Shown in pieces: positions 21,738 to 64,000 of a DNA stretch of 64,000 bases. The notes under the pieces were generated by a model. The model did not search any database and was not told the DNA's origin. It saw nothing but the letters and a program-made list of their open reading frames with translations. This DNA comes from a virus. Location: IMG/VR virus record IMGVR_UViG_3300021959_007960, positions 91,387 through 155,386 of that record, one strand, 5' to 3'. The position numbers and the translations under genes were made by a program. Every line of letters starts with the position of its first letter. The stretch's first letter is position 1.

Positions 21738-21738
21738 C

Positions 21739-27532: not shown

Positions 27533-28460
27533 ATGCTCTTAAATCTACGTTATCATTAATAGTTCTAGTAGAACCGTCTGAATATACGCAGTTCATTACG
27601 CCGGGGTGCATACTATATGCTTCACCGTCATTAATAACATTAAATGGCACATTGCCAGCACAATTCTTACATTTATCACCATTAGAATCAACACCATGTA
27701 ATTTAAATGGCCCCAATGAATCTGCCCAACTAATACACTGGTTAGTATTCCCTGTAGCACTTTTACCATTACTAGCTTTATAAGTATCAGGTCTGCTTGC
27801 ACACTCTACAATCATAAGAGTGTTAGAAAAACCATCAACAATTTCTTGCTCTTTAGTTACTTTATCTTTAATTAAACAACCATCATCATTAGTTTTACTT
27901 GCATAAGGATCGCTACCAGCAGGAAAGATTTTATCTTTTACCCCAGTGAACACCTCATAGTCTGTATAACCAAGAAGATTAGGGTCTAAACTTGGTGCAG
28001 CACTGTCGCTATCTCTACTAGGCCCATCAATACTGACATACCCACCCACAGGAGGAAGGGCAGTTGGACATTTAAATACAGATGCTTCTGTAACAATAGC
28101 GGCAGTATTTTGCCACCAATGTTTATTGAAGTCATAAATGTTTGCTACGTTACCCTGTTCTAAATTTGCCAAAACAAATGCTCTCCAGCTATGTTCTGTT
28201 CGTGAAGGATTGCCGAGAGAACTAGGAGTTTCAGATAGGTCTTTAGCTTCAACAGTCCATGCGGCAGCAGGAAAATATCTTTTTTGATCTAAACTCATGT
28301 GCATAGCCAAACCTTGTTGTTTTAAATTATTAGAACAAGATGCTCGTCTTGCTGCTTCTCTAGCAGATTGTACAGCAGGTAGTAATAAACCTACTAAAAC
28401 GCCGATAATTGCAATAACTACCAGTAATTCGATGAGAGTAAAACCTTTGCGATTTTTCAT
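27483..28460 (-). CDS. DUF1559 prepilin-type N-methylation protein (planctomycete family)
   Basis: GFTLIELLVVIAIIGVLVGLLLPAVQSAREAARRASCSNNLKQ, HSW, FKCP, C-terminal H-X9-DG (HPGVMNCVYSDG). Confidence 0.95.
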   Translation of the reverse strand: MKNRKGFTLIELLVVIAIIGVLVGLLLPAVQSAREAARRASCSNNLKQQGLAMHMSLDQKRYFPAAAWTVEAKDLSETPSSLGNPSRTEHSWRAFVLANLEQGNVANIYDFNKHWWQNTAAIVTEASVFKCPTALPPVGGYVSIDGPSRDSDSAAPSLDPNLLGYTDYEVFTGVKDKIFPAGSDPYASKTNDDGCLIKDKVTKEQEIVDGFSNTLMIVECASRPDTYKASNGKSATGNTNQCISWADSLGPFKLHGVDSNGDKCKNCAGNVPFNVINDGEAYSMHPGVMNCVYSDGSTRTINDNVDLRAFAAAITRNGRETQTID

Positions 28461-29649: not shown

Positions 29650-29685
29650 AATTTATTCCTTTGATTAAATTAATATTACAAATAA

Positions 29686-29758
29686 TAGGAGTGGCGGGAG
29701 TCGAACCCGCACTGGAAGGATTTTAAGTCCTTTGTCTCTGCCTTTGGACTACACTCCC
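29686..29758 (-). tRNA. tRNA-Leu(UAA), short variable arm, CCA not encoded
   Basis: GGGAGTG/CACTCCT acceptor; AAGGA-CTTAAAA-TCCTT anticodon arm; GCGGG-TTCGACT-CCCGC T-arm. Confidence 0.95.
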
Positions 29759-29765
29759 AAAACCT

Positions 29766-30194: not shown

Positions 30195-30383
30195 TTAATC
30201 TTCTTTTTTTGGCAACAATATACCTAATAGTAAGTATACCCAAAAGATAATACTACCAGAGGCAATAGCACCAAAAACAGTTAGTAGTCTAATAATAGTA
30301 ACATCAATGCCTGTGTAATCAGATAGACCAGCACAAACACCAAAAATCATACCGTCTTTTTTATTTTTCAATAAGTTACTCAT
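30195..30383 (-). CDS. PspC-domain membrane protein
   Basis: KKDGMIFGVCAGLSDYTGIDVTIIRL...YLLLGILLP. Confidence 0.9.
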   Translation of the reverse strand: MSNLLKNKKDGMIFGVCAGLSDYTGIDVTIIRLLTVFGAIASGSIIFWVYLLLGILLPKKED

Positions 30384-30687
30384 ATTTTTTTAACCACTCC
30401 GTAAAGTTATAAGGGGTAAAACCACGCAATTCACCAATCTTTTTATCGTTGTCAAAGATAAATGAAGTAGGATAAACTTTTATATGTAACTTATTTACTA
30501 ATTCAGGATGCTCGTCAATATCAATGTATTCTAAATCAAAATTCTTAATAATATCTGGATTATCTTTCATATACTGTTTTTGCTTAACACAGTATGGACA
30601 CCAATCTGCGCCTATAACAAGAAGGTCTTTGGCGTATGCTGTACTACAACTTAACAGTAGTAGAATTAATAATTTGAATAATTTCAT
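30376..30687 (-). CDS. Exported thioredoxin-like protein
   Basis: Signal peptide, ADWCPYC, cis-Pro YPT. Confidence 0.85.
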   Translation of the reverse strand: MKLFKLLILLLLSCSTAYAKDLLVIGADWCPYCVKQKQYMKDNPDIIKNFDLEYIDIDEHPELVNKLHIKVYPTSFIFDNDKKIGELRGFTPYNFTEWLKKYE

Positions 30688-30866
30688 TTGGAGGTATTCC
30701 TATTAGTAAATAATATTCATATAAGCTAAACATATATACACCCCCATAGATTATTGTTTATTTTCTGTCTTTTGCTAGATTAACAAAAAAACAAACTACA
30801 CTTAAATCTACAACAACTACGATCCACCATACACTTAAAACATCTAGTAAAGTATGATCCATCTTT

Positions 30867-34744: not shown

Positions 34745-36397
34745 TTAATAATTGTTTAAGTCGAATTGATGGTCACTAATGAATTTATTAAAGTTTACAC
34801 CATTCCAATAGTCTTCTATAGTAGTAGCTGATAAATGACGATACCAATCGTGTGAGCCAAACTTTTCAACATAGTAAGTATGAATAACAATAGCCTCTTC
34901 TTTACTTGTAATATCAGAACATCGTTCAGTAGTTTTATGGCAATGTTTTATAATTATATCATTACAAGGATTCCAAGCCTGATATTGCTTAGATTTATAA
35001 ATACAATAATCTAAAATCACATCACAATAAAAAGTACCTATGATAATATCATCTGGTAATAATTCAAAATCATCAACCATAGGTGATCTAAATATCCAAG
35101 CATCTTGAGAACAAAAAGCATCTCTATGTCTATCTTGCAGTAGCTTTCCATCATCTTCATGTCTTGTAAGAGCAATCATATCTCTAGGTCTAAGTCCTCT
35201 TATCTTTGATAAGTCATCATTAAAAAGAATATCATTGTTTGCTACAATACACTGTGTATTAACAATGTTTTTATTTGTATAAGCAAATATTTTTTTAAAG
35301 GACATTCTGCAAATGGTATTGTTTACAATTATTTTTTCTTCATAATCTTTTTTTAATTCATAAAATTCTGGAAAGTCTTCATAGTTTTCTAAAAAGATAT
35401 GAACCTTAGCTATGTATTTGTTTTGTAGGTTTAGTTTTAGGCAGTCAAGAATCTCTTTTGTTCTTTCTGGTAGTGGGTCTTTGTAAAGATTAATAACTAA
35501 TTCAAAAGTTGATTGACCATATTTTTTATTCATATAGTTCAAAGTTTTGTGTGTATGATTATCTTTTCTGTTGTACCCCCTAACACGATGACTATGGGGA
35601 TTATGATATACTGGAACACAATTAGGTTCAAAATAAATATTTTTTCTAGTAAGACCAAGGTTTTCTAGCTTTTCAAACATTTCACAATCTTCTCTACCAT
35701 AATTGTCAATGTCTTCATTATATAATCCAACATCTATAAAAAACTTTTTATGGCAACATATAATTCCATTGAGATTTTTAATAAAACCCAGTTCATTATC
35801 AAGATAACACTGATTCCAATTACCCGCAACAAACTGTCCCGGTGATATATCAATTAAACTTTGTAATGGAACATAGGGGTTAAGTATGTAATCCACATCC
35901 ATCTTTAATATTTTTTCATGTTTGGCAGCTTTTATAGCGATATTAATAGGCTTGCTGGCATTATAAAACTTTTCACCTTCTATCCTGATAACTTTAATTC
36001 TGGCATCAACATTTTCAAGATGTTTTAAACTTTTTTCGGATGACCAATCTACAATTATAATCTCTTTAATCTGTGGGTGTAAAATCCAAGACCTTAAACT
36101 TACACTCAACATATTCTCTCTGTCTTTACAAGCAACTACAAGAGATATATCCTCAAACAAAATCTTTGGATCGTATTCTTTTACATCTTCATGGTTTTCG
36201 TATGGTTTTTTGAGTTCATTCTCACCAAAAGTAATCCAATGGTGATATAGTCTTTGTCTTTCAGTAAATCCATTGTCTTTACAATATGGTTGATAATAAT
36301 CTTTTACATCATACGTGTGAGCGTAAAATTCATCATCAAACTCTTTTGGAACACTGTTGTTTTCATAAAAAGCATCTATAGATATTGGCTCATTCAT
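34745..36397 (-). CDS. Multidomain glycosyltransferase (GT2/GT7-like plus a second GT-A-like domain)
   Basis: ACKDR, IVDWSS, KMDVD, YNE...YGRED; second domain ANNDI, SQDAWIF. Confidence 0.75.
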   Translation of the reverse strand: MNEPISIDAFYENNSVPKEFDDEFYAHTYDVKDYYQPYCKDNGFTERQRLYHHWITFGENELKKPYENHEDVKEYDPKILFEDISLVVACKDRENMLSVSLRSWILHPQIKEIIIVDWSSEKSLKHLENVDARIKVIRIEGEKFYNASKPINIAIKAAKHEKILKMDVDYILNPYVPLQSLIDISPGQFVAGNWNQCYLDNELGFIKNLNGIICCHKKFFIDVGLYNEDIDNYGREDCEMFEKLENLGLTRKNIYFEPNCVPVYHNPHSHRVRGYNRKDNHTHKTLNYMNKKYGQSTFELVINLYKDPLPERTKEILDCLKLNLQNKYIAKVHIFLENYEDFPEFYELKKDYEEKIIVNNTICRMSFKKIFAYTNKNIVNTQCIVANNDILFNDDLSKIRGLRPRDMIALTRHEDDGKLLQDRHRDAFCSQDAWIFRSPMVDDFELLPDDIIIGTFYCDVILDYCIYKSKQYQAWNPCNDIIIKHCHKTTERCSDITSKEEAIVIHTYYVEKFGSHDWYRHLSATTIEDYWNGVNFNKFISDHQFDLNNY

Positions 36398-38903: not shown

Positions 38904-38926
38904 AATTCAATCCTAAGTGGAGGCGA
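38404..38926. repeat. 13-bp direct repeat (tmRNA 3' end) flanking the HNH gene
   Basis: TAAGTGGAGGCGA at 38404-38416 and 38914-38926. Confidence 0.85.
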
Positions 38927-39257
38927 GGGGAATTGAACCCCTGTCCAGCATAAATTCCATATAAACTTCTACATCGTTAGTCTGTTGTTATTAATACTAC
39001 AGACAAAACTGTTTGTCTTTCCAACGTCAAAGTGATTACACTTATCGACCTTCTTAGTTCAGGTAGGACAACCCTATCCGATTATCGGAGTCAGCATAAT
39101 TGGGTAAAAAGGTTTATGCAACCCCTCTCACCTAAGCGGCGAGTGCTAATACAGAAGTATCGGCAATTAAAATGTGATCTATTTTTAAACTGGCCTTTAG
39201 ATCAACCAGTCGATGCAACCTATACTTCTATTCACCTGTCGAAACCAGTACGCCCCC
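38918..39257 (-). ncRNA. ssrA: tmRNA
   Basis: 5' GGGGGCGTACTGGTTTCGAC; 3' GACAGGGGTTCAATTCCCCTCGCCTCCA; G3.U70 pair; tag ORF ADTSVLALAA* at 39132-39164. Confidence 0.95.
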
Positions 39258-42069: not shown

Positions 42070-42987
42070 TTATTTTCTGGCATTGTCATAATTTTTAACA
42101 AACCAATCCATAGTATCTCTCAAGCCAATATGTATTGGTGTGAATTTAAAGTCGTCAATATATCTTTTGAGTCTTTCATTATCTACTGTTTTTTTATATT
42201 GACCATCAGGCAAATTACTATTGAATCCAGTTCTATCAAATACATCAAAATATTCAGCAATAATTTTTGTCACATCAAATATACTATGTTCTGTTTCTTC
42301 TGCAAGAGTCATTGGAGATACCCAATCGTATTGATGATTATCTAATTTAAAAATCAAATGTGCCAAGTCCGCTGAATACATAAATTGCCTTAATGGAAAC
42401 CCACTTCCTGCAACAGTAAAATCAGTACCATCTCTTTTTGCTATATATGCTTTATGAATTAAAGCAGGGATTACATGGGCATCTTCTAAGTTAAAGTTAT
42501 CGTATGGGCCATAAACATTTGTTGGAATAATACATTTATAGTTATAATCATATTGCTTATTGATGGCTCTACAATGTACATCAAGCATTCTTTTTGCATA
42601 GGAATATCCAAAATTAGATTTATGAGGCTCCCCATCATACAACATATTTTCATGTATAGGATATTTAGTATTTGCCGGAAAAACACAAGTAGATAAACAA
42701 CCTATAAATTTTTTAACATTGTTTTTGTAGCAAGCATTAACTATATTAGTATTTATAAATATATTATCACTAAACATATCTACGTTATTATTCAAGTTTT
42801 TAAACAAACCACCAACTTTTGATGCTAAATGAATAACAGATTTTGGTTTATGTGTAGATATTAAGTCTAAAGTTTGTTCTGTATTGGTTAAATCTGCGTC
42901 TGATGAAGATACGCAAATTGCATTTGGATAGAACTTCCGTAACGCAGAGCCGATAAGTCCTGTGCTTCCTGTAATTAAAGTGTCCAT
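42070..42987 (-). CDS. fcl: GDP-L-fucose synthase
   Basis: GSTGLIG, HLASKVGGL, CLSTCVFP, GYSYAKR, PTNVYGPYDNF, HVIPALIHK. Confidence 0.92.
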   Translation of the reverse strand: MDTLITGSTGLIGSALRKFYPNAICVSSSDADLTNTEQTLDLISTHKPKSVIHLASKVGGLFKNLNNNVDMFSDNIFINTNIVNACYKNNVKKFIGCLSTCVFPANTKYPIHENMLYDGEPHKSNFGYSYAKRMLDVHCRAINKQYDYNYKCIIPTNVYGPYDNFNLEDAHVIPALIHKAYIAKRDGTDFTVAGSGFPLRQFMYSADLAHLIFKLDNHQYDWVSPMTLAEETEHSIFDVTKIIAEYFDVFDRTGFNSNLPDGQYKKTVDNERLKRYIDDFKFTPIHIGLRDTMDWFVKNYDNARK

Positions 42988-49110: not shown

Positions 49111-49737
49111 TTAATATATTTGTAACATACTATAATTTATTGGATCAAAATCAGGAAACAATAATTCATTTTTATTATATTTTAAATTATTAATAACATT
49201 TTGTATATTGCTGTATTTAATATTTGAAGTATTTAATAATTTAATATTTGAAGTATTTAATACTATCGAAGGAATCTCTTTATCAACTTTTAAAAATTTT
49301 AATGTTGTTTTTTGCCAAACAGGATTTTCTATATTACACACTAATAACTGAGATGGTTTATCTTTAAAAAAATCTAATACGCTGTGATGATGTTGTCTTC
49401 TTTTATCAATCCATGATAAAGCCAATTTTTCACTCGCTGGATATGCCCAATTAACTTTCTGTCTTTTTCTTTTGCTCTCAACAATACCATGTTTAAATCT
49501 CGAAAAAATCCAATCTTGCAAAGGTCTTGTATTTAATAAAAATAAAGCATCTGGATAATGATTATAATATTCTTTAAATTTATTAACATGATTACCATCG
49601 TTAAAGGCATCAAATTTTTTAGCAAGGTCTAAAGGAGATTTTGTGCTATGTACAGAATTAATACCACATGCTTTTAATAAATTGTGAGTGCTGAATGTAG
49701 CAGTTTTATTCATACTAAGATTAAATATTTTATTCAT
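49111..49737 (-). CDS. Sulfotransferase-like protein
   Basis: LSMNKTATFS, YPDALFLLNTR...WIFSR, FFKDKPSQLL. Confidence 0.7.
   Translation of the reverse strand: MNKIFNLSMNKTATFSTHNLLKACGINSVHSTKSPLDLAKKFDAFNDGNHVNKFKEYYNHYPDALFLLNTRPLQDWIFSRFKHGIVESKRKRQKVNWAYPASEKLALSWIDKRRQHHHSVLDFFKDKPSQLLVCNIENPVWQKTTLKFLKVDKEIPSIVLNTSNIKLLNTSNIKYSNIQNVINNLKYNKNELLFPDFDPINYSMLQIY
49215..49262. repeat. 24-bp in-frame tandem duplication
   Basis: ATTTAATATTTGAAGTATTTAATA x2 (LNTSNIK twice). Confidence 0.9.
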
Positions 49738-51942: not shown

Positions 51943-53232
51943 TTATGCTATGATATTGTGTTGAATATTACCAAATACGTCAGTCAGTCTAAAATCTCTC
52001 CCGCTATATCTATATGTTAGTTTTGTGTGGTCAAGTCCCATCAAGTGTAATATTGTAGCATGTAAATCGTGCATATCCATACTGTCTACAGCCTTATGTC
52101 CAAAATCATCTGTAGAACCATATCTCATACCTCCTTTTACTCCACCACCTGCCATCCACATACTAAACCCACCATTATTATGATCTCTGCCTGTTGCTCC
52201 TTCTTTTATACCGGGAGTTCTACCAAATTCACTTCCGAATAATATAATTGTATCTTCAAATAACCCACAATCTTTTAAATCCTGTATTAATCCAGCAATA
52301 GGTTTGTCAATAGCAGTTGTATTCTTTTTTAGATTATCATTAATATTTTGGTGCATATCCCAACCACCATGACCAATCTCTACAAATCTTACTCCTGCCT
52401 CACTAAATTTCTTAGCTAATAAACATTGTTTGCCAAATTTAGCCGTAGCTTTATCATTGATGCCATACTTCTCTAATGTTTGTATAGATTCTTTTGATAT
52501 ATCAATAGTATTAGGAACACTTGTCTGCATCCTAAAAGCCAACTCATAACTCTCAATCAGTCCTTCTAGCCTACTATTCTCACCATTACCTAATTGATAG
52601 TTATTTAAGTCTCTAAGGAAATTCAAGTTCTCTCTTTGTCTGTTTAAATCTATTGGACTTTGAAGATTAGGGATAGGGCTTTTACTACCAGCATTAATAG
52701 CAGTACCCTGATATACTGCCGGTAAGAAAGAACTACCATAATTATCTGGGCCAATATTTGCGTCTATAGTTATAAACCCCGGCAACTCTTTATTCTCTGT
52801 ACCTAATCCATACAATAACCAACTGCCCATACTAGGTCTACTGAACTGAAAATTACCTGTGTGTAATAAACTTCGTGCTTGATTATGATTACCTGTTTTA
52901 CTCTTCATGCCATTCAATAAACATAAACTATCTGCGTGTTTACGAAGGTGTGAGAAGTTCTCACTAATTTCTATACCACTATCTCCTGCTGGAGTTAAAG
53001 GCACTCCCGGCTTTACAATCTTTCTGCCTTTACTCACAGGATCATCTGTACCATCTTTCTCTACCATTAAAGGTTTATAATCAAAAGTATCCGTATGAGT
53101 CATACCCCCATTCATATACATAAATATAACTCTTTTATTACTTTGCATCATCTCTTCTGCAAGTAATCCTTTTAGTGCCAGCATTCCAAAACCTGCACTA
53201 CTAGCTTGTAATAAATTTCTTCTATTTAACAT
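51943..53232 (-). CDS. DUF1501 protein (Tat-exported, planctomycete family)
   Basis: NRRNLL Tat motif; FMYMNGGMTHTDTFDYKP, RPSMGSW, GGWDMH, SEFGRTP, GRDH, DLHATILHLMGLDH. Confidence 0.95.
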   Translation of the reverse strand: MLNRRNLLQASSAGFGMLALKGLLAEEMMQSNKRVIFMYMNGGMTHTDTFDYKPLMVEKDGTDDPVSKGRKIVKPGVPLTPAGDSGIEISENFSHLRKHADSLCLLNGMKSKTGNHNQARSLLHTGNFQFSRPSMGSWLLYGLGTENKELPGFITIDANIGPDNYGSSFLPAVYQGTAINAGSKSPIPNLQSPIDLNRQRENLNFLRDLNNYQLGNGENSRLEGLIESYELAFRMQTSVPNTIDISKESIQTLEKYGINDKATAKFGKQCLLAKKFSEAGVRFVEIGHGGWDMHQNINDNLKKNTTAIDKPIAGLIQDLKDCGLFEDTIILFGSEFGRTPGIKEGATGRDHNNGGFSMWMAGGGVKGGMRYGSTDDFGHKAVDSMDMHDLHATILHLMGLDHTKLTYRYSGRDFRLTDVFGNIQHNIIA

Positions 53233-55591
53233 TACGAAATTCTCCTGTGCAGATTAATATTTGGGTTAAGTATGCAAGATTATTATTATCTTTCTCTATA
53301 AAATCTATAGATGCTTCAGTCTCAATATTGGTAGGTAAACGGCCTAAAAACTTTAAAAATATTTCATTGACATTGTTACGGTATAATATTTTCGGCATAG
53401 TTTTACTCATCTTTTTATTTCGCTCAAGTAATATTTGTGCTTGTTCTTGTGCTAGTGATATGATCTTAGGATTATTCATTAAGAATAAAGCCTGTGTAGA
53501 TACTGTTGTGACACTTCTCTCAGCATTAAGCAAACTATTGTCTGGTCTATCAAATATGTCCAGTACCTCAATCTTATTATCTCTTAATGATGGAATATAA
53601 ATTGATCTTGCTCTTGTCTCACCAATATACTTTCTTAACTCTTTGCTAGAATTTTTTATGTCTGTCTGAAAATCACTAATGTTCTTATGCGATCCGTCTA
53701 GCTTGCCTGATACAAATAATAATGAATCTCTAATTTGCTCTGCTTCTAATCTCTTCTCGTTCATTCTCCAGAAATAAACATTGTCAGGATCAATCTCATA
53801 ATTATTTTTATCAAAATTACTACTACGTCTGTAAGCATTACTCATAACAATAGTTTTAATAAGTCTTTTATTTGATAGCCTACCAGTAACAAACTTGGTA
53901 GATAAATAGTTCATCAGTTTAAGATTAGTAGGTTCTCCACCTAGTATTCCAAAATTATCAAAACTATCTAATATACCCTTACCAAACAAATGTCTCCATA
54001 CTCTATTTACATAAACCCTATAAGTTAATGGATTAGTTTTATGTGTTATCCATTCTGCCAGTTCATATCGTCCACTTGTATTATCAAAGTTAAGATTAGG
54101 TCTATCACTAAATATCTCTGGCAATCTTCTTGGTACTTCATCACCCAGATTATTAACCTCACCCCTAATTGCCAGTTTAACTTCTGTCATCTTTTCTTTA
54201 TCTTTGACAGACATTACAGGCTGTAAATGTTCTAGGTATTTTAAATATTCATCAGATAACTCAGCTTTTGCTTCTTCTAATCTCTTTTGTCTCTTACCTA
54301 ATTCTCTGTTTAATTGATCTTCTGTTACTCTTTTATTCCATGTTTTAATAGATTCTATTTGTATCTCTAAGTTTTTAATGTCACACAGGAGGAACCATTC
54401 CTTTACCTTTTTCTTTTTGTATAAATCTTCTGTCTCTTCTGTTATCAGATATTCATAGTCTCCAAGATAACCAGTATTATTATTACCTCTATACAAACCA
54501 TCCATATTTCTTGTATTATTAAACACTCCAGCAACACCATAATAGTCTTGCTGAGAAAATGGGTCAAACTTATGATCGTGACATCTTGCACAACTTAAAG
54601 TCATACCCAGAAAACCTCTGGTGATAGCATCTATCTGGTCATCGTTACGATCTGCCTCAAACTGTCTAATCTGTGCCTGTATATTTTTTGTACCTATTGT
54701 TAAAAAGCCTGTAGCTATCCTGTTGTTGTTATATTCTTCATAACTTTTATGTGGTAATAAATCACCAGCTATTTGTTCTATAATAAATTGATCGTATGGT
54801 TTATCTTGATTAAAACTATCTATAACATAATCCCTATATCTCCAAGCATAAGGACTAATTAAATTTCTATCTTGTCCAGATGATTCTGCATATCTAGCTA
54901 CATCTAACCAATGTCTCCCCCATTTCTCTCCAAAACCTTCGTCCTCTAATAAACTATCTACTAATTTTTCATATTTATTTTCCGAAGTATCATTTATATA
55001 CCCTTTAATTTGCTCAATACTTGGTGGCAAACCAATAATATCAAAGTAAAGTCTACGAATAATGGTATAGTCATCTGCTATTTCTACGGGTTTTAATTTA
55101 TTTTTTAATATTTCTACATTAAGTATAGCATCTATTTCTGTACCATCGTCATATTTAGCTACAGGAGGTCTTGTTACCTTCTTAAATGCCCAGAAATTTC
55201 TAGCTTGTCTTAATTCTACTGCCCTGTTCTCAGGTTTGTATCTTGGGTCAGGCATACCCATTTTAATCCATTGTCTAAAATTATTTACAATTTCTTCGCT
55301 CAAAGGATTATCTGGTGGCATATCCCCAGACTCTATATAATCTAATAATAAACTCTCGTCTATTTTACCGGGAACAACTGATGGGCCAGAATCTCCACCA
55401 TTTAATATACCTTGTCTAGTATCTAAAGATAATCCACCCTTTACGTCTTTTGAGGTAGAAGAATGACAAGAATAGCATTGTGTAGTTAAGACGTTCCTGA
55501 TATTATTTTCAAAAAATTTAATACCAGCATCTTGAGATAGTGCTATATTAGAATATAGAACAAAACTAACTAGAAGTATTTTTTTTAACAT
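53222..55591 (-). CDS. PSCyt1 cytochrome c + DUF1549 (PSCyt2) + DUF1553 (PSD1) protein
   Basis: Signal peptide; CYSCH; GRHWLDVARYAES; CARCHDHKFDP; RVYVNRVWRHLFG; RLEAEQIRDS; QALFLMN. Confidence 0.95.
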   Translation of the reverse strand: MLKKILLVSFVLYSNIALSQDAGIKFFENNIRNVLTTQCYSCHSSTSKDVKGGLSLDTRQGILNGGDSGPSVVPGKIDESLLLDYIESGDMPPDNPLSEEIVNNFRQWIKMGMPDPRYKPENRAVELRQARNFWAFKKVTRPPVAKYDDGTEIDAILNVEILKNKLKPVEIADDYTIIRRLYFDIIGLPPSIEQIKGYINDTSENKYEKLVDSLLEDEGFGEKWGRHWLDVARYAESSGQDRNLISPYAWRYRDYVIDSFNQDKPYDQFIIEQIAGDLLPHKSYEEYNNNRIATGFLTIGTKNIQAQIRQFEADRNDDQIDAITRGFLGMTLSCARCHDHKFDPFSQQDYYGVAGVFNNTRNMDGLYRGNNNTGYLGDYEYLITEETEDLYKKKKVKEWFLLCDIKNLEIQIESIKTWNKRVTEDQLNRELGKRQKRLEEAKAELSDEYLKYLEHLQPVMSVKDKEKMTEVKLAIRGEVNNLGDEVPRRLPEIFSDRPNLNFDNTSGRYELAEWITHKTNPLTYRVYVNRVWRHLFGKGILDSFDNFGILGGEPTNLKLMNYLSTKFVTGRLSNKRLIKTIVMSNAYRRSSNFDKNNYEIDPDNVYFWRMNEKRLEAEQIRDSLLFVSGKLDGSHKNISDFQTDIKNSSKELRKYIGETRARSIYIPSLRDNKIEVLDIFDRPDNSLLNAERSVTTVSTQALFLMNNPKIISLAQEQAQILLERNKKMSKTMPKILYRNNVNEIFLKFLGRLPTNIETEASIDFIEKDNNNLAYLTQILICTGEFRNVK

Positions 55592-55628
55592 TTTTATTGC
55601 CCCTCACCCATTTAGGAGTGTATGGACA

Positions 55629-55640
55629 ATTAATACACCG
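55629..55640 (-). promoter_or_regulatory. GGTGTA-type candidate phage promoter
   Basis: CGGTGTATTAAT, identical to 20831-20842. Confidence 0.5.
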
Positions 55641-55677
55641 AGAACCACAGCATATTTTTCTGGATAGTAAATACTCT

Positions 55678-55866
55678 TTAGTTAATGGTTTTGTCATTGA
55701 GTTTAATTATAGTCCAGTATTTACTACCACAATGGTTATCCACCCACTCTTCTGCCATATACTTTTCTTCAAAAGGCCCGTATATCCTATCATCTCTATC
55801 TCCAACACGAAAGTTTTTTAATTCAACAGAATATTTACTCAACTCACTTATAACAACAATATACAT
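55678..55866 (-). CDS. Hypothetical protein
   Basis: YGPF motif; operon context. Confidence 0.55.
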   Translation of the reverse strand: MYIVVISELSKYSVELKNFRVGDRDDRIYGPFEEKYMAEEWVDNHCGSKYWTIIKLNDKTIN

Positions 55867-56126: not shown

Positions 56127-57188
56127 AACTCCATTTTAGTCATAGGAGATATTGTGTCTATATATGAGCATATAGGAGTATTACTATCATTATAATTAAC
56201 CTTATATACTTCTATAGCACATAAATCTTCTGTTGTTGGAGACTCTTTAATCTGAAAATGTATTGTCTTTCTCATATTCCTACCCATAAGTAAAGGTAAG
56301 ATATGTTACACCTATTTTCTAACTTCGCACGTTTCTAGTACTTCCTTGAGTAAATCTAATGACACTTTTAAAAAATGGTCTTTATGTCCCTGATTAAACT
56401 CATGCTTATGTTGCTCGTATTCTTCAAGAGCAACCTTGATTCTAACCTCTAGGTCTTTAATGATGCCGTCGTACATTCTAATCCTCCAGAACTATAAAAC
56501 TGTCTAATACCTCATACTTGACCACAACACAATCTTTTTCGTCATATTTAAATTTGAATAGGAAATACTTAGCTATTCTTTTCAATATGATACTTATGAA
56601 AGATCGGTCTAAATTGTCTGCTTCCATATCTATAATTGCAGTAATTAATATTTTCTTTCTCATTGTTGATTTGATTTAATTGTGGGTTTAATTACCATTA
56701 ATTCAATTCAATTTACACTTTTCGTGGGAATCACGCCAAATAATGTCCTATCAATAATATGTAAATTCTTTGCTTCTTTACTGTCAATATACATTAGATT
56801 CTTATCTAAATGATCATGTAAGACTTTGCGTAATAGCTTGATTTCCCTGACTGTGAGTAATACGTTTTTATACATTTTTCACCTAAAAAATAACGATTTC
56901 TACCAATATACCTATTACCATCCATTATAGCATAAACACTAGGAGTGTCAATAGTATCGACTACCAGAATCCACTGACTTTAGACTTTTCCTTTTTTGCT
57001 AATTTATGTCGTCGCGGCAAAATAAGTGATTAAAATAAAATTTGGGGCTAATTAGCTACAAAATATGGTGCAGAAGGATATATTATGATGTATATAGAAT
57101 ATAATAACTGCTATTTGATACTATTATGGAATATAACTGCATGGTTTCTATAGGAATGTATATGGTGCAGGGGATAATAGTAATAATT

Positions 57189-57836: not shown

Positions 57837-58244
57837 TTATAAATAAGAAGTTTCTTCACATACTAGAACCTCCGATCCATTTGTTACTAAGTGACTATAT
57901 TTACTATCATCCCAATTAAACATACCATCATCCCCTGACCTACGCCAGTGTACATCCTTAATAGGATTATACTTTAATTTATCGAAATATTTGGTATCTA
58001 TACTATCCTTTTCTAATATATCAAAATTCTCACATTCTACCCATCCACATACATCTTTCTTTCCTGCTAAATTAACTTTACGGGCAGCGTTAATTTTATT
58101 AATAAGTTTACAACCATATAGTTCTAGTTGGTACTTATTAGGATCAATATACTTCACTGTACCATCATATGCTTTGATCTGCCAGTGCATATAATGCTGA
58201 CCCCTTTGTAAATGAAACCTTACCTTATATTCAAAACCTTCCAT
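57837..58244 (-). CDS. Hypothetical protein
   Basis: GGAGGA RBS; followed by a terminator-like hairpin at 57783-57808. Confidence 0.7.
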   Translation of the reverse strand: MEGFEYKVRFHLQRGQHYMHWQIKAYDGTVKYIDPNKYQLELYGCKLINKINAARKVNLAGKKDVCGWVECENFDILEKDSIDTKYFDKLKYNPIKDVHWRRSGDDGMFNWDDSKYSHLVTNGSEVLVCEETSYL

Positions 58245-58247
58245 TAT

Positions 58248-58457
58248 TCATCCTCCCCCGAACATAGACTTCCAACAACTATCACAAGTCTGACTAATTA
58301 GCAATTCCCTTTCTGCTTTATTTAGATATGGCAGGGCATCTTGGATATATTCTCCAGCTTGCCATTTGAGAAGGTCTGATGGATTTACCATAAGCACATG
58401 GTCTGTGTTGCAGTGAGAACATACAACACGTAACGGTTTTTGATTACAAGCAATCAT
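58248..58457 (-). CDS. Small Zn-finger phage protein
   Basis: CSHC...IQDALPYL..AERELLISQTCDSCW. Confidence 0.75.
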   Translation of the reverse strand: MIACNQKPLRVVCSHCNTDHVLMVNPSDLLKWQAGEYIQDALPYLNKAERELLISQTCDSCWKSMFGGG

Positions 58458-58622
58458 ATCTTTTCTCCTTTGACTACTAAGTATACCATACACATCGTCA
58501 TTAGTCAACCCCTGACTTTAGGAAATCACTGACTACCTACTATAGCCCGAAACCGATTAGTTAAGATAGTACACATTTTATATACATACTTATATAGGGG
58601 GGTTAAACAAGTTTATTTATAC

Positions 58623-58658
58623 AAAAAGACCACCCCCGCCGAAGCGGGGATGGCCTCT
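58623..58658 (-). terminator. Intrinsic terminator after the DUF932 gene
   Basis: CCCCGC-TTCG-GCGGGG stem-loop followed by T-tract. Confidence 0.75.
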
Positions 58659-58684
58659 TGGCAACGAACCACGAAAGGAGATCG

Positions 58685-59632
58685 TTATAGAGCGTTGGCG
58701 TATTCTGAAGCCAGTGCCAATGCCCTGTTATTAGAAGTGCCGTTTTGACCAAACCACAGGCTTTCCATGCGGTTGTTGATATTACGACCCTTGCTGTAAT
58801 TGAGGTACTCGTTGAAGCCATTATAAGCAGCCCACCAAGTGCCACGAACTCCAGCAATATCTTGCTTAGGCCCATGAATCGTATGTAGAATCTCATCAAT
58901 CGTATTTTTGGTACGAGTTTTGAGGTCAAGATCATGAGTCCTATCGACATTCAGCAGGGTCTTGACGTATTTGCGAACGTCTGCCTGATTGAAGTCTCGA
59001 CTAGCAAGAAATCGGAACTGTTCAGCAGTAGCCTCAAACTGTGCATTGATATTGTCCATAATATCTCGGACGTTATCAAGGTTGGTCTGGGCACTTTTCG
59101 TATGTCGAATCCGCAGCAGATTGCTCTCTTTGTGAGAGTGGGCAAAAGCTAGGGTATTGACACAAACAACACGGATTGGGGTATAGCCTACACGAATAGC
59201 GGTTGTACCATCGTGACTATTTGATAGCAGAATAAATTTCTGTACCTCATCACCTTTGACAATTTCGCTAGGGTCACGGTTGAGTTGAGCGAGCGCCCAT
59301 ACTTTTTGACCGTTACTTAGCGAACCACCTGTATGCAGGCTACACTCACCAGCGTCGACGAATGGCTGAAACCATTCAAAGGCATCTTTATTCTGAAGTG
59401 GCACATACCTTGGGCCTACCACTCCTAGAATACTACCATCACTTTTGCGATAGGTAGCTTTTGCAGGAACATCATAACCGTCTTTGGTTACAAGATCCTT
59501 TACGCCAACTTCCCAATCCAGACCGGACTTCTCGATGGCCTCACTGATCGTTGGTGCTTCTTCCAACTTCTCACCAAGACCATGCCAAGGTTCTGCTCCG
59601 GTGTAAAACATTGATTCAACATTAGCAGCCAT
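58685..59632 (-). CDS. DUF932/DUF945 phage-plasmid protein
   Basis: PWHGLG, LGVVGPRY.PLQN, GSL..G.KVW, NSHDG, TPIRVVCVNTL, RHT, GTWWAAYNGFNEY. Confidence 0.9.
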   Translation of the reverse strand: MAANVESMFYTGAEPWHGLGEKLEEAPTISEAIEKSGLDWEVGVKDLVTKDGYDVPAKATYRKSDGSILGVVGPRYVPLQNKDAFEWFQPFVDAGECSLHTGGSLSNGQKVWALAQLNRDPSEIVKGDEVQKFILLSNSHDGTTAIRVGYTPIRVVCVNTLAFAHSHKESNLLRIRHTKSAQTNLDNVRDIMDNINAQFEATAEQFRFLASRDFNQADVRKYVKTLLNVDRTHDLDLKTRTKNTIDEILHTIHGPKQDIAGVRGTWWAAYNGFNEYLNYSKGRNINNRMESLWFGQNGTSNNRALALASEYANAL

Positions 59633-59671
59633 TTCGTTTTCCTTTCGTTAGTGGTTACTTGCTATGCTTCA

Positions 59672-59711
59672 AGTATATCATATATATCGTCATTGTCAAC
59701 CAAAATCTTTA
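59672..59711 (-). promoter_or_regulatory. Interleaved sigma-70 and sigma-28-type promoter
   Basis: TAAAGATT-N12-GACGATAT overlapping TTGACA-N16-TATACT. Confidence 0.75.
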
Positions 59712-59719
59712 GAATTTTT

Positions 59720-59778
59720 GCTGGCTTTACCATAAAGACCAAACTGGGTGGTTAGGCTAAGACAAATAAACATGTTTA
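59720..59778. repeat. Intergenic repeat, copy A
   Basis: GCTGGCTTTACCATAA...ACAAATAAACATGTTTA; copies at 62765 and 63730. Confidence 0.85.
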
Positions 59779-59854
59779 TTTTTACACAAAAAACCCGCCA
59801 CAGGTCCACAAGGAAATTATCCCGGTATGCGACCTGCGACGGGCTCTTTATAGT

Positions 59855-60370
59855 TTATGCTTCCTCCATATCGTCGTAGTATTCGTGCATACTAAACTCA
59901 TCTCGTAGAGCTTCTGGAAAATCGCTCCAGTTACCCTCATAATAATCATCCTCACCATTTTGCCAAGTTCCTGCAAAACTCATTCCTGGTTCAAAATAAG
60001 AGGCTTGTACGTCAAAACCTAACGTATGCAACCTCTCATAAAAACCCAATGGTGGAGACCGTGCACTGTCGAATCTAACAGTTAGCTCGTTATCGACTAT
60101 TGTTGGCTCCATACCATAACCGTCCTTACAACCTATATCCCATTTGGTACCCCAATTAGCTATACGCCAGTGATACCAATTATTAGTTGCGTTTTCACCC
60201 TCACTGAAAGATTTACCTTCTCCCATTAGCATCGTTGGATCACCCGGATCTCTTGGAGTAGGATAAAAAGTCTCGATAGCCCAATCTTCACGATAAGCCT
60301 TATCGAACTTTTTGATCATATCCATATCTTTATGGCTAATAGTCAAAAGATTCATGCACCAGTTAGGCAT
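59855..60370 (-). CDS. DUF1281/YubB ferredoxin-like protein
   Basis: MPNWCMN, WYHWRIANWGTKWD, FDSA.SPP, YFEPGM.FAG. Confidence 0.85.
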   Translation of the reverse strand: MPNWCMNLLTISHKDMDMIKKFDKAYREDWAIETFYPTPRDPGDPTMLMGEGKSFSEGENATNNWYHWRIANWGTKWDIGCKDGYGMEPTIVDNELTVRFDSARSPPLGFYERLHTLGFDVQASYFEPGMSFAGTWQNGEDDYYEGNWSDFPEALRDEFSMHEYYDDMEEA

Positions 60371-60489
60371 TGTCTACTCCTATCCAACCTGAGATAAATA
60401 TTGATACACATACAAACAGAATAATCCATTCCATACCTTATCAGTCCTTCCTATCTGACATTATACCACACGCTAGCATAAATGTCAAA

Positions 60490-60561
60490 TAGCCCCGGCG
60501 AGAATCGAACTCACATCGACGGTTTAGAAGACCGTTGTTCTATCCGTTGAACTACGAGGCC
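60490..60561 (-). tRNA. tRNA-Arg(UCU), CCA not encoded
   Basis: GGCCTCG/CGGGGCT acceptor; ACGGT-CTTCTAA-ACCGT anticodon arm; GTGAG-TTCGATT-CTCGC T-arm. Confidence 0.93.
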
Positions 60562-60619
60562 AAAAGTCAGAGCCGCAGTCTTGGATATCCCCATTGACGC
60601 TGCGGCCCTGACCCTGACA

Positions 60620-60922
60620 TCATACACCCGGAAGCAAACCGTCTGCCTTGCCTGCTTCTGTAATAATAGTGGCAGACTTACCATCTTCAACAATCTTCGG
60701 ATTGTGAGCATCGCCTGCCTGTTTGACTGTCACCCCAGTCATTTTTGCACGCCATACTTTGTATCCATGCTCGCTGTACTGCTTGATACCAGCAGGCTTC
60801 ACAATAGATACTGCCTCCTGATGATTGTCTTTACAAAACAAAGAAAGACCTGTCTTGACATCTTCAACATCGAGATCGTCAGCTACCATATCAACTGTAA
60901 AAGAATACTTTTTCATCATCAT
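60620..60922 (-). CDS. Hypothetical protein
   Basis: GGAG RBS; dual promoter at 60976-61016. Confidence 0.65.
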   Translation of the reverse strand: MMMKKYSFTVDMVADDLDVEDVKTGLSLFCKDNHQEAVSIVKPAGIKQYSEHGYKVWRAKMTGVTVKQAGDAHNPKIVEDGKSATIITEAGKADGLLPGV

Positions 60923-61018
60923 TCTCCAATCGGAACCAAAACAACTAAGAAGAACCGTTCTCCATTAGTAATATCATTATACCATATATTATCGACCTGT
61001 CAACTAAAAAACTTTAGA

Positions 61019-61180
61019 TTATTTTCTATGATCTCTAAAGAATTCAAGACGAACACCAACATTCATTCTACCATTAATAGGCTGTTGATTCAAGTCCAGA
61101 GTTTTATTACAAGTCAATGAACATTTGCTAGTAGTCACACAACCAGAACAAAACAGTAAAATTATTAGTAAATATCTCAT
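61019..61180 (-). CDS. Small putative lipoprotein
   Basis: Not in the track; MRYLLIILLFCSGC lipobox-like sequence; directly behind a sigma-28-type-only site at 61188-61215. Confidence 0.55.
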   Translation of the reverse strand: MRYLLIILLFCSGCVTTSKCSLTCNKTLDLNQQPINGRMNVGVRLEFFRDHRK

Positions 61181-61466
61181 ACTACTATTATCGTCCTTTT
61201 AGCTGCAAAACTTTATTTTGACTGACTGCGACCATCCAGACTTATCTTATTATATTAGATAGAACAAACTGGCGTCTATACGATGTTGGTCCAATCTTCC
61301 CCGGCCTAGCCGGAAGGTATAGAAGTCGTTTACAGACTACCTGCGAACAGGTCACCAGTTGTTTATATTATAGGACTTAGGCATTACTCGTACTAGAGCA
61401 ATTCTTTCCCGTATACCTGTCAGGCTGCCAAGGTGGTATACGCCCTATCCATCTTAATGTACGGCA

Positions 61467-61572
61467 GTGGTCGTCAGGACTTGCACCTGATAAGTCGTCC
61501 TTGCGTCACTATATTTGCAGACTCAAATAACGTGATGCCGGTCTGTAACGCCTAGGCTTCTATGCCCGCCAC
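61467..61572 (-). ncRNA. tRNA-like ncRNA of unknown family
   Basis: GTGG/CCAC closing stem, GGC-ATAGAA-GCC arm, GCGTTAC/GTGACGC arm, TCAGG-TGCAAGT-CCTGA T-like arm; starts at the predicted TSS of the promoter at 61579-61619. Confidence 0.6.
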
Positions 61573-61649
61573 ATTATCATTATACAATATATATCGGTCT
61601 CTGTCAACAATATTCTTTAATTTTATTTTTAAACATGTTTATTCTGCCC

Positions 61650-61907
61650 TCATTCCTCAAAATCTTTATCACGAGATTCGTTCAAGATGTGATAGCATTC
61701 TTCCAGTATATCCTCCGTTGCCCACACAGTTGTTTTCTTATCTGCACTAATATAGTCCTTACAACTACGCTCATCTACATATACATGTTCGTCTATCAGT
61801 TCGCTTCCTGTCATATAGTCTAAAAACATTTTTATAACTATCTCTTTTTTATTTAGATCCGTGTTAAATACTTTTCTAAAATTACCAGACGCTATATAGA
61901 CTTTCAT
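61650..61907 (-). CDS. Hypothetical protein
   Basis: ATGA overlap with the GP88-like gene. Confidence 0.65.
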   Translation of the reverse strand: MKVYIASGNFRKVFNTDLNKKEIVIKMFLDYMTGSELIDEHVYVDERSCKDYISADKKTTVWATEDILEECYHILNESRDKDFEE

Positions 61908-62677
61908 ACTGCTGTCTCCTTCTTGAGAATTTTTAGTGCTTCCGCTGCTTTGCTACCCTTTGGCTGTACGCCATGAATCAGTAGGGCAAAATCTTGGTTG
62001 GTCTTGGTTGGATCACAAGCATGAGAATCGTCGTGGTCAATTTCCAGACCTAACTCCTCTGCCTCTGCTACACTGAACACAACCTTAGCAGACCGTAGAC
62101 CATGCTCTGCAATCAAATGATCGTCACGACCACCGTATGATGCCGTCAATACTAGATTTCCGGGGACAAGGCTGCGACTACGCACCCAATACGTTAGCGA
62201 CTTAGTATAAGCATAGAATAGTACAGTAGGATTGCGTTCTGCGACTTTGATCCATGCCATGAAATACTTGTGACTGAACATATCACCAGACACATGAATA
62301 CGAACTACTCGGGCGTCCTTGGGTAATGCTGCACACAATCCGTCTGCCATAGCGTCACTTGTTTCCAGACTATGTATAGCGTCGTGATTACGCTTGCGAC
62401 TTTTGTATGTATTGGTGAACAATACTTCTTGACTAGCAGAGAAGCAACGGAATTTTGTGTGAGGCCCGTCCTTAATTCTGCGACTACCATCTGCCTGTTC
62501 TTCTGCCTGAGACTTGCAGTTGTGGGCGAAAGGACAGTCTACTCCCGATAAAATATCGAAAGAATAAACTTTGGCAGTAGACCGTCCTATCTTCTGACCC
62601 AACCACCGCTTGAGCACAGTTGTTGCGAGCTTGTAAAGTTTTTTGAGTTTAGTATTGGCGGCTGAAAACTTGAGCAT
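61904..62677 (-). CDS. GP88-family (radical-SAM-like) phage protein
   Basis: CPFAHNC...CFSAS, RIHVSGDMFS, FYAYTKS; start refined to ATG 62677. Confidence 0.8.
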   Translation of the reverse strand: MLKFSAANTKLKKLYKLATTVLKRWLGQKIGRSTAKVYSFDILSGVDCPFAHNCKSQAEEQADGSRRIKDGPHTKFRCFSASQEVLFTNTYKSRKRNHDAIHSLETSDAMADGLCAALPKDARVVRIHVSGDMFSHKYFMAWIKVAERNPTVLFYAYTKSLTYWVRSRSLVPGNLVLTASYGGRDDHLIAEHGLRSAKVVFSVAEAEELGLEIDHDDSHACDPTKTNQDFALLIHGVQPKGSKAAEALKILKKETAV

Positions 62678-62764
62678 ATCGTTGTCTCCTGTGGTTATGC
62701 TTTCATTATACCATAGTATCGTCATATGTCAACTATAAACTTCAATAAATTTTGCAGTTTGTTT

Positions 62765-62827
62765 GCTGGCTTTACCATAATTACCGATCCGGAAGGATAG
62801 GGTAAGACAAATAAATAAACATGTTTA
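62765..62827. repeat. Intergenic repeat, copy B
   Basis: GCTGGCTTTACCATAA...ACAAATAAATAAACATGTTTA. Confidence 0.85.
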
Positions 62828-62844
62828 ATTTTTATATCTACACT

Positions 62845-62878
62845 AAAAAACCCCGCCACCCATTGCTGAGTGACGGGG
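62845..62878 (-). terminator. Intrinsic terminator
   Basis: CCCCGTCAC/GTGGCGGGG stem followed by T6. Confidence 0.7.
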
Positions 62879-62904
62879 CAATCGACACACCACCACGGAG
62901 AATC

Positions 62905-63285
62905 TTATGTTGCAAGCAATCGTCCGAACAAAGGTTTGCGGCAATTCACTGCACGTTCGCAGTAAAACTGTCGATACTCGCCATCTTCGACTTGACATGT
63001 TACCAAGTGATTGGTACGTTCGAAGTCTGGATCTTTTTTGCGATAGTTTGAAGTACGATTCATTATTTCGATCTGTCTGTCAGAAAGTCTGACTACAGGC
63101 TCTACCACCTTTGCTTTGTGACGAATGCGTTCGCCAGTAAGTGGTTGTAAGTACTCGAAACTAAAAACCTCGCCTTGCTTTGCATCGCATAGACTAGCAT
63201 CTCTACCATAGAGACTTAAGACAACAGCAAAAGCAAGAAGACAACCGATCATCAACACTGTAGTGAAAAGAAAGTAATCGTTCAT
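62905..63285 (-). CDS. Membrane-anchored hypothetical protein
   Basis: N-terminal TM segment; sigma-70 promoter at 63324-63352. Confidence 0.7.
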   Translation of the reverse strand: MNDYFLFTTVLMIGCLLAFAVVLSLYGRDASLCDAKQGEVFSFEYLQPLTGERIRHKAKVVEPVVRLSDRQIEIMNRTSNYRKKDPDFERTNHLVTCQVEDGEYRQFYCERAVNCRKPLFGRLLAT

Positions 63286-63348
63286 AGTAAAACTCCGTAA
63301 GTGTAAAAACCAAACCTAAAACCATTATACCATATGCTCGACACCGTG

Positions 63349-63651
63349 TCAAGCCTTAATCGTCATTCCATCCTCAAACGCTGCAATGCCATTTACATAC
63401 CATTCCCAATTTTCTTGGCGTACATAAAAAGGACTGAAACGATTGATTCTGTCTTTTGTTGTGGGCGTTTTGTGTCCACCATGTCTTAGCGTTACGCTGT
63501 CGTCATCATGAATAGTCACAACGTCCGTACTGTACAACATGAAAGCTACACTACCATCTGGCTTGATTCTTGCAGTGGTATTGTTTGCTACCTTGCGTTG
63601 CATTCTGTTATTCTTTCCCAATACTAATTTTGTGGCTTCTGCGTGTGTCAT
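63349..63651 (-). CDS. Conserved phage hypothetical protein
   Basis: RKVANNT, TLRHGGHKTPTTKDRINRF, VRQENWEWYV. Confidence 0.75.
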   Translation of the reverse strand: MTHAEATKLVLGKNNRMQRKVANNTTARIKPDGSVAFMLYSTDVVTIHDDDSVTLRHGGHKTPTTKDRINRFSPFYVRQENWEWYVNGIAAFEDGMTIKA

Positions 63652-63729
63652 AAGTATTTTCTCCTTACTTGTTATATCGACATTCTACCAGATAATCTTT
63701 AGCTGTCAATAGAAAAAAAATATTTTTGT

Positions 63730-63794
63730 GCTGGCTTTACCATAAATACCAAATCCGGCTACTTTAGCCGGTACAAAACAAATAAACATGTTTA
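63730..63794. repeat. Intergenic repeat, copy C
   Basis: GCTGGCTTTACCATAA...ACAAATAAACATGTTTA. Confidence 0.85.
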
Positions 63795-64000
63795 CAACCC
63801 TCGAAACAGGGTTTAAAACCCTGCCTCGAAAGTTGCTGTTGCGGCTATACCTTCAGTTAGATGTACCAGTATCGTAAGGATAGTTCCAGTGATAAACGCT
63901 ATTCCGAAAATTCGCATCGCTTCCCTCTGTTCCCTCGTCATCATTCACCTCCGTGTGAAATACTGTTTGTGTAACTGACCACATCATAATTATGCCAACT

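Follow-up and report, generated by a model that had tools for sequence, protein, structure and literature searches.

A planctomycete-type gene pair in an AT-rich phage

Why would a phage carry an intact gene pair of a kind expanded in planctomycetes, how long has its lineage kept the pair, and what might the two proteins do during infection? These questions are raised by a 64,000-nt window of a phage contig (positions 91,387 to 155,386 of IMG/VR record IMGVR_UViG_3300021959_007960), within which all positions given here are counted. On the minus strand of this window, a PSCyt/PSD1 gene overlaps a DUF1501 gene. DUF1501 together with PSCyt1, PSCyt2, and PSD1 forms a conserved genetic module in Planctomycetes, Verrucomicrobia, and Lentisphaerae (PMC3542564, PMC5615132). 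We are highly confident that the phage pair is a host-derived two-gene unit, acquired in one joint transfer, recoded, shortened, and kept by selection in an AT-rich aquatic phage lineage. The elements of the locus are as follows:

53222-55591, minus strand: PSCyt/PSD1 gene, 789 amino acids (aa), PSCyt1-PSCyt2(DUF1549)-PSD1(DUF1553), exported type
51943-53232, minus strand: DUF1501 gene, 429 aa, twin-arginine (Tat-like) N terminus, predicted alkaline phosphatase superfamily fold
53222-53232, minus strand: overlap of the PSCyt/PSD1 stop with the DUF1501 start, 11 nt

The overlap probably reflects translational coupling of the two genes. A first-pass annotation, made from the sequence alone, had proposed an intact planctomycete-type pair within a phage, in which a secreted 789-aa protein with two CxxCH motifs and DUF1549/DUF1553 signatures overlaps a Tat-signal DUF1501 gene. 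The proposal is borne out by Pfam and by the phage gene context, and the description of the genes was correct, with the export signals read at the level of motifs. The Pfam scan that it had called for matched all four domains. In the 789-aa protein, PSCyt1 (residues 39 to 94; E = 9e-14), PSCyt2/DUF1549 (residues 152 to 361; E = 5e-79), and PSD1/DUF1553 (residues 508 to 763; E = 6e-71) all scored above their gathering thresholds; these domains reportedly go back to work by Studholme in 2004. In the partner, DUF1501 (PF07394) spans residues 33 to 426 (E = 3e-130) and profile positions 2 to 388 of 390.

By eye, the PSCyt/PSD1 N terminus, MLKKILLVSFVLYSNIALSQ, resembles a Sec signal, and hydrophobic N termini occur in every viral partner protein. 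The DUF1501 protein begins with MLNRRNLLQ, in which R4 and R5 are at least 90% conserved across 82 homologs, and the RR pair is present in all full-length viral copies (both viral surveys being motif-level readings). The two CxxCH motifs of PSCyt/PSD1 are CYSCH at residue 39 and CARCH at residue 334. Their C39, C42, and H43 and C334, C337, and H338 are invariant among 43 viral and cellular homologs (13/13 viral copies), as is M91-P92, and a second invariant motif, CARCHDHKFD, spans residues 334 to 343. In the PSCyt1 domain, CYSCH and M91-P92 appear to match the heme site and distal Met pattern of class I c-type cytochromes. Retention of conserved positions is complete in both proteins, with 84/84 columns that are invariant across the 43 partner sequences and 16/16 that are invariant across 82 DUF1501 sequences kept in the window copies.

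The setting is that of a phage genome. Every long open reading frame (ORF) of the window lies on the minus strand, GC content is ~32%, and the window also encodes rIIA, an ATP-dependent DNA ligase, ThyX, UvdE, RuvB, DUF932, and GP88, along with many tiny ORFs. The pair has phage genes on both sides, and records of related phages are rated 100% complete. It is a host-derived gene unit with neither a structural nor a replication role, nested in a cellular clade, and as such qualifies as an auxiliary metabolic gene (AMG) unit.

Distribution and assembly integrity

The same protein with the same neighbors was found in an NCBI metagenome-assembled genome (MAG) contig, an ENA assembly, and a Logan assembly, and the cluster of the identical DUF1501 protein includes a 153,969-bp contig. 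A scan of IMG/VR recovered 19 loci with DUF1501 copies that are 81 to 93% identical; most of those with enough flanking sequence have the same DUF5824 gene, Ogg-like HhH glycosylase gene, and small ORFs as neighbors. CheckV rates five IMG/VR records with the pair or a paralog (159 to 195 kb) as 100% complete, and a terminase-like ORF of ~678 aa occurs in two of the five. Considering the independent assemblies, the synteny in IMG/VR, and the records rated 100% complete, chimeric assembly is very unlikely.

A word-indexed search extended the group to more than 110 clusters at 77 to 100% identity on contigs as long as 205 kb, and contigs carrying the pair reach 145 to 205 kb. From there, identity falls to a second group at 60 to 63%, which is also phage. 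This group includes the freshwater contigs L109 and L110, which are dense in small ORFs and have a membrane-anchored thioredoxin and PspC after the pair, and a third contig with an Ogg-HhH glycosylase upstream of the pair. Outside the two phage groups, nothing more than 54% identical to the DUF1501 protein was found among 1.84 billion cluster representatives. A comparison with 185,579 species genomes gave best matches of 50 to 53% identity, which came from Pirellulaceae, Rubripirellula, other Planctomycetota, and Verrucomicrobiota. Among 50,697 GenBank phage records, tblastn gave no PSCyt/PSD1 match and a single DUF1501 match (26%, on a 6.9-kb fecal contig), and a nucleotide search of the 20-kb region against phages returned a ThyX fragment only.

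Other DUF1501 genes occur within this phage group. Locus L027, in a 180-kb record rated 100% complete, has two more (10001-11245 and 14987-16228), and L028 has another (6259-7488), all only ~26% identical to the window copy. One of them follows a 627-aa ORF with a weak VWA match, and another adjoins a DUF5824 fusion. They were apparently captured independently, such that the DUF1501 family would have entered phages of this group more than once. In the 159.7-kb record of locus L014 (G005), terminase-like matches at 13526-13897 and 155139-155513 lie ~141.6 kb apart, which suggests that the contig wraps around a ~142-kb genome through terminal duplication or circular permutation.

Composition, codon use, and selection

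The first-pass annotation had described the pair as being as AT-rich as the flanking phage genes and as ameliorated, and base composition agrees on both counts. The PSCyt/PSD1 and DUF1501 genes have 31.7% and 35.3% GC, compared to an average of 35.3% in twelve other window genes. Their GC content at third codon positions (GC3) is 21.5% and 24.0%, respectively, compared to an average of 25.0% in the same twelve genes and 73.4% in 76 cellular orthologs. The composition of the pair is fully ameliorated to that of the phage. Codon use follows the same pattern: in the pair, 58% of leucines are encoded by TTA and 73% of arginines by AGA, compared to 0 to 3% in planctomycete orthologs. The only two tRNA genes of the phage match exactly the codons that dominate in the pair:

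29685-29759 and 60489-60562, minus strand: tRNA-Leu(TAA) and tRNA-Arg(TCT)

This match fits an AT-rich phage translating in a GC-rich host and looks like compensation of codon supply.

The ratio of nonsynonymous to synonymous substitution rates (dN/dS), which the first-pass annotation had also called for, was calculated pairwise by the Nei-Gojobori method within the marine clade, where some dS values are near saturation. Median values were as follows:

DUF1501: 0.066 (62 pairs)
PSCyt/PSD1: 0.090 (44 pairs)
Ogg-like glycosylase: 0.063 (36 pairs)
DUF932: 0.058 (6 pairs)
ThyX: 0.154 (43 pairs)
170-aa ORF: 0.21 (45 pairs)

The pair is under strong purifying selection, as strong as that on the phage's own core genes. 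Together with identities of at most 54% to any cellular DUF1501 copy, dN/dS values of 0.07 to 0.09 are far from the picture of recent host alleles under relaxed selection, which had been named in advance as grounds for rejecting a long-held module.

Origin of the pair and probable host

A DUF1501 tree of 111 rows unites the phage copies of marine and freshwater origin in a single clade (Shimodaira-Hasegawa-like approximate likelihood ratio test, 100). A careful analysis of 42 rows recovered the viral clade at 100/100 on a stem of 0.83 substitutions per site and placed it in a clade with five Planctomycetota loci (L069, L029, L031, L042, and L034) at 95/84. For PSCyt/PSD1, the tree likewise recovered the viral clade (support, 100; stem, 1.24 substitutions per site), here joined by four of the five loci (L069, L042, L029, and L031) at 98. 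The amino acid composition of the viral rows is deviant and could exaggerate their clustering, but the trees are consistent with identity levels and synteny. The monophyletic viral clade anticipated by the first-pass annotation is thus found for both genes, and its view of a long-held module is upheld by phage-only clades with long stems and both marine and freshwater members.

In 72 of 82 loci (80 cellular and 2 freshwater phage), DUF1501 is immediately preceded by the partner gene in the same orientation, and this arrangement is also found in the viral loci. Both viral clades have the same Pirellulaceae/Planctomycetaceae loci as neighbors, which is most simply explained if the two genes were transferred together once, long ago, before the marine and freshwater branches of the phage lineage split. 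On the same explanation, the donor was a Pirellulales/Planctomycetales-like Planctomycetota bacterium, of the Pirellulaceae/Planctomycetaceae type.

Compared to the cellular module, the phage pair has identical domain architecture and gene order, with the partner directly upstream on the same strand. As read from motifs, its DUF1501 protein has the RR signal and its partner a signal peptide; both CxxCH motifs and all invariant residues are kept, and the nearest loci in both gene trees are Pirellulaceae/Planctomycetaceae. In contrast to the cellular module, it is phage encoded and present as a single copy in the window, whereas cellular genomes have dozens of paralogs. The phage DUF1501 protein is at most 54% and its partner ~41% identical to any cellular copy. 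Both phage proteins are also short (429 aa compared to a median of 473 aa for DUF1501, and 789 aa compared to 781 to 891 aa, mostly over 800 aa, for cellular partners). GC3 is 22 to 24% rather than ~73%, the carbohydrate-binding and Big_2/WD40 add-ons are missing, and position 45 of DUF1501 is Thr, where the family usually has Ser. In the literature searched, there was no description of a phage carrying the module and none combining DUF1501 with DUF1553. The module itself is already known; what is new relative to that literature is the phage carrier, the deep phage-only branch of both families, and the streamlined form.

A second planctomycete-expanded family in the phage bears on the host:

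27483-28460, minus strand: DUF1559 pseudopilin, 325 aa, prepilin N-methylation motif, DUF1559 (SBP_bac_10), and H-X9-DG

Three Planctomycetota genomes each have 38 to 59 full-length matches to this protein at 36 to 41% identity, and in a verrucomicrobial genome the match is restricted to the prepilin N terminus. Because the DUF1559 pseudopilin, the two gene trees, and the tRNA/codon pattern all point the same way, Planctomycetota are probably both the donor and the host, as judged from sequence comparisons. The pair and the DUF1559 pseudopilin mark a widespread group of large phages as probable Planctomycetota viruses. The phage also encodes a transfer-messenger RNA (tmRNA):

38915-39257, minus strand: tmRNA, full length; Rfam RF00023, 114.7 bits; ARAGORN tag ADTSVLALAA

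The tags AESNLVLAA, AEKQFVMAA, and ASNEDTFALAA from three genomes of the Planctomycetes-Verrucomicrobia-Chlamydiae (PVC) group differ from the phage tag, a comparison that is not decisive for the host.

Extent of the unit and accessory genes

Genes beside or between the two members vary among relatives. In most marine relatives, a 126-aa 2x[4Fe-4S] ferredoxin gene follows DUF1501. No ferredoxin gene follows DUF1501 in the window, L013, or L014, and none occurs anywhere in the window; the ferredoxin was rejected as part of the module for this phage. In the marine relatives L010/L021, a Sulfotransfer_2 gene (9375-9989) lies between the pair members, and in freshwater phages that place is taken by a 182-aa Cys-rich ORF (L109, 3516-4064). 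The latter was likewise rejected as a module part; it looks by eye like an HNH-type insert and has no Pfam match. Because these accessory genes vary, the pair itself is the unit.

Membrane-anchored or signal peptide-bearing proteins of the thioredoxin fold are encoded directly after the pair in L109/L110 and directly before it in L022. The window has a protein of this kind 21 kb from the pair:

30376-30687, minus strand: exported thioredoxin/glutaredoxin-like protein, 103 aa, signal peptide, WCPYC

Upstream of this gene, GGTGTA occurs in intergenic sequence at 30742. The protein is a candidate helper for heme attachment or disulfide handling and a possible member of the module. Cytochrome c maturation uses exported thioredoxins to keep CxxCH cysteines reduced, and the exported thioredoxins of these phages lend weak support to heme binding at the CxxCH sites.

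Predicted structures and function

The AlphaFold2 model of the DUF1501 protein has a mean confidence (predicted local distance difference test, pLDDT) of 92.6. Foldseek matched it to type I sulfatases at E = 6e-8, and VIA-align ranked NPP/ENPP phosphodiesterases first (Z ~20; root mean square deviation, 3.2 Å; ~245 residues), followed by PafA (Z ~19) and sulfatases (Z ~18). The predicted core superposes on all three kinds of enzyme over ~245 residues at Z 18 to 20. PDB sequence searches gave only marginal sulfatase/LtaS matches. By its modeled fold, the DUF1501 protein is a member of the alkaline phosphatase superfamily, though an atypical one. Its invariant polar residues among 82 sequences are K53, D292, H294, D318, E335, R338, R349, and H351, and H116 is conserved in 81 of the 82. 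Position 45 is Ser in 76/82 and Thr in 4/82, with the window protein among the Thr carriers.

The PSCyt/PSD1 model (pLDDT, 79.5) is mostly helical, with low confidence around both CxxCH loops. No Foldseek match to a solved structure fell below E = 0.2, and the VIA-wide comparison reached Z ≤ 7.1 on a single helical hairpin (residues 392 to 451), which is noise level. Polyomavirus VP1 matches in a PDB sequence search look spurious and were discarded. Among the named clusters of the ESM Atlas, only PSD2/PSCyt3-type families were returned (0.76), below the useful range.

Published work supports a periplasmic location of the cellular module, whose PSCyt/PSD1 partner often carries carbohydrate-binding modules and whose RR signal would fit an exported enzyme with a cofactor (PMC3542564, PMC5615132). 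Overall, we lean toward the explanation that the ancient host-derived pair is kept as an auxiliary unit consisting of an exported heme protein and a hydrolase. During infection, both genes would be transcribed together and translationally coupled. The heme-motif protein would be exported by the host Sec system and loaded with heme by the host cytochrome c maturation system, perhaps assisted by phage thioredoxins, and the DUF1501 enzyme would be exported in folded form via host Tat. In the periplasm, the two might act as one enzyme system, in which DUF1501 would be the catalytic subunit, with its alkaline phosphatase superfamily fold and a substrate of the phosphate-ester or sulfate-ester type, and PSCyt/PSD1 the heme-bearing partner. 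As an auxiliary metabolic gene unit, the pair would maintain or raise an acquisition or processing step in the host periplasm during phage replication. Taken as a whole, this specific ester hydrolase/heme partner mechanism is tentative.

Cyanophages carry exported phosphate acquisition auxiliary genes of the pstS/phoA type. The phage pair may be analogous, as a host-derived periplasmic function in the early/accessory region of a large marine phage that is ameliorated and under purifying selection. Unlike those genes, it would be a two-protein unit that requires host Sec, Tat, and cytochrome c maturation, and its host phylum is probably Planctomycetota.

Several observations weigh against parts of this explanation. 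The C/S-x-P-x-R formylglycine signature is absent from the DUF1501 protein (it occurs in the first 200 residues of 2/82 family members, by chance), the canonical sulfatase metal-ligand D-H/N motif aligns to E335-F336, and sequence identity to the alkaline phosphatase superfamily is 10 to 16%. In a profile-profile comparison with planctomycete NPP-like proteins, probability was 14%, and since only 42 columns aligned, DUF1501 may catalyze something other than ester hydrolysis. A cytoplasmic 2x[4Fe-4S] ferredoxin or a sulfotransferase accompanies the pair in many relatives, and this may point to a redox or sulfation link. The flanks of the five closest cellular orthologs hold unrelated genes, with no conserved neighbor and no functional hint. 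With regard to the host, the phage has 32% GC compared to 40 to 70% (median, 60%) in the sampled loci that carry the module, i.e., at least 8 points lower. Finally, we know of no activity measured for any DUF1501 or PSCyt/PSD1 protein.

Alternatively, the pair could form a periplasmic redox module, in which the heme c domain links it to the host respiratory chain and the enzyme is an oxidoreductase rather than an ester hydrolase. A periplasmic substrate would then be oxidized or reduced, keeping the infected cell energized or redox balanced. The invariance of the class I cytochrome c signature (CxxCH and Met-Pro) and of the second motif, CxxCHDHKFD, is in line with such a role, as are the position of the ferredoxin directly after DUF1501 in most marine relatives, the thioredoxins adjoining the pair in others, and the involvement in electron transport proposed by Kamneva et al. 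(PMC3542564). However, the ferredoxin has no export signal and is separable from the pair, given its absence in the window, L013, and L014, and the fold family of DUF1501 consists of hydrolases and transferases, with no redox enzymes. We consider the redox module unlikely. The first-pass annotation had suggested that the pair may remodel periplasmic redox or envelope functions during infection, a suggestion that is speculative.

Still less probable is that the exported pair edits a surface or periplasmic glycan, for example by removing phosphate or sulfate, which would block superinfection or ease release and thus serve host takeover rather than metabolism. Glycan genes are numerous in the window (several glycosyltransferases, NDP-sugar epimerases, and a sulfotransferase-like gene), L010/L021 have a Sulfotransfer_2 gene within the pair, and the phage encodes the DUF1559 pseudopilin and exported proteases. 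Nevertheless, the dozens of cellular paralogs per genome are thought to be periplasmic, which fits substrate processing better than surface editing. That the pair is an artefact or passenger, either cellular DNA misassembled onto a phage or a recent, decaying host fragment, is essentially excluded: an identical sequence does occur in a contig binned to bacterial MAG GCA_012263365.1, but the same junctions recur across three independent assemblies and ~20 IMG/VR contigs, composition equals that of phage genes, dN/dS is 0.07 to 0.09, the closest cellular relative is at most 54% identical, and every family-invariant residue is retained.

Returning to the favored hydrolase/heme protein unit, its significance lies partly in what it may reveal about the cellular families. 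The module occurs at dozens of loci per Planctomycetes or Verrucomicrobia genome, and its function has been unassigned since the descriptions of 2004 to 2012. In this phage lineage, marine and freshwater members alike have retained a single streamlined copy, and the minimal pair is evidently useful alone. At 429 and 789 aa and without accessory domains, the phage version is tractable for expression, structure determination, and substrate screening. The pair also adds a periplasmic two-protein unit, predicted to depend on Sec, Tat, and heme, to the auxiliary genes of phages. A further step, which we consider somewhat doubtful, is that the minimal pair is a self-sufficient periplasmic enzyme system with which Planctomycetota phages, in the infected cell, obtain a scarce nutrient (phosphate or sulfate from organic esters) or rewire periplasmic redox. 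If this is true, one of the largest orphan gene families of the PVC group would for the first time be given a function, and a new class of exported, heme-dependent phage auxiliary gene would be recognized.

Upstream region and candidate promoters

Three elements lie upstream of the pair:

55634-55639, minus strand: GGTGTA hexamer, 48 nt before the PSCyt ATG; candidate phage promoter element, inside the DUF5522 ORF
55566-55697, minus strand: Cys-rich DUF5522 ORF, 43 aa (CCGxRCxNCPY); Pfam E = 1e-7, 32.4 bits compared to a cutoff of 25
56924-56951, minus strand: perfect sigma-70-type promoter match, TTGACA-16-TATAAT with TG; consensus match only, 1.3 kb upstream

The first-pass annotation had both genes preceded by GGTGTA and had suggested phage promoter control through this motif. 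The hexamer is present before PSCyt, but DUF1501 has no GGTGTA motif of its own, and the copy near the pair is coding, supplying the codons R-C-I of the 43-aa DUF5522 ORF. This ORF overlaps the PSCyt start by 26 nt, and a homologous peptide occurs upstream of the pair in related phages. GGTGTA as such is at chance frequency in the window (20 observed, 22.7 expected). Seven of its 14 minus-strand copies are intergenic, compared to the 10.9% of the sequence that is intergenic (binomial P = 3e-4), and GGTGTA(T/A) lies 30 to 50 nt upstream of the PSCyt start in 8/13 viral loci. In L009, L010/L021, and L012, it sits in an intergenic stretch that is nonhomologous to the upstream region of the window. 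Promoter control through GGTGTA gains from this recurrence and intergenic enrichment but, with the window copy being coding, is not established. The sigma-70-type match at 56924-56951 is a candidate early promoter for the pair, and a scan found no minus-strand terminator between the two.

Other features of the window

Several further minus-strand genes were noted. A glycan toolkit at 4337-5428, 11444-13315, 13297-14268, 34745-36397, 42070-42987, and 49111-49737 comprises several glycosyltransferases, NDP-sugar epimerases/dehydratases, and a sulfotransferase-like protein; one glycosyltransferase has a weak GT29 sialyltransferase-like match. At 18872-20513 (minus strand), a subtilase gene (Peptidase_S8; E = 3e-53) adjoins a trypsin-like protease gene, and the RuvB homolog (20847-21794) adjoins these two protease genes. 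Toward the end of the window (58000-64000), in the region of DUF932, GP88, and tRNA-Arg, GC content climbs from ~32% to 40 to 43%, and this step in the final 6 kb may mark a module boundary or a more recent acquisition.

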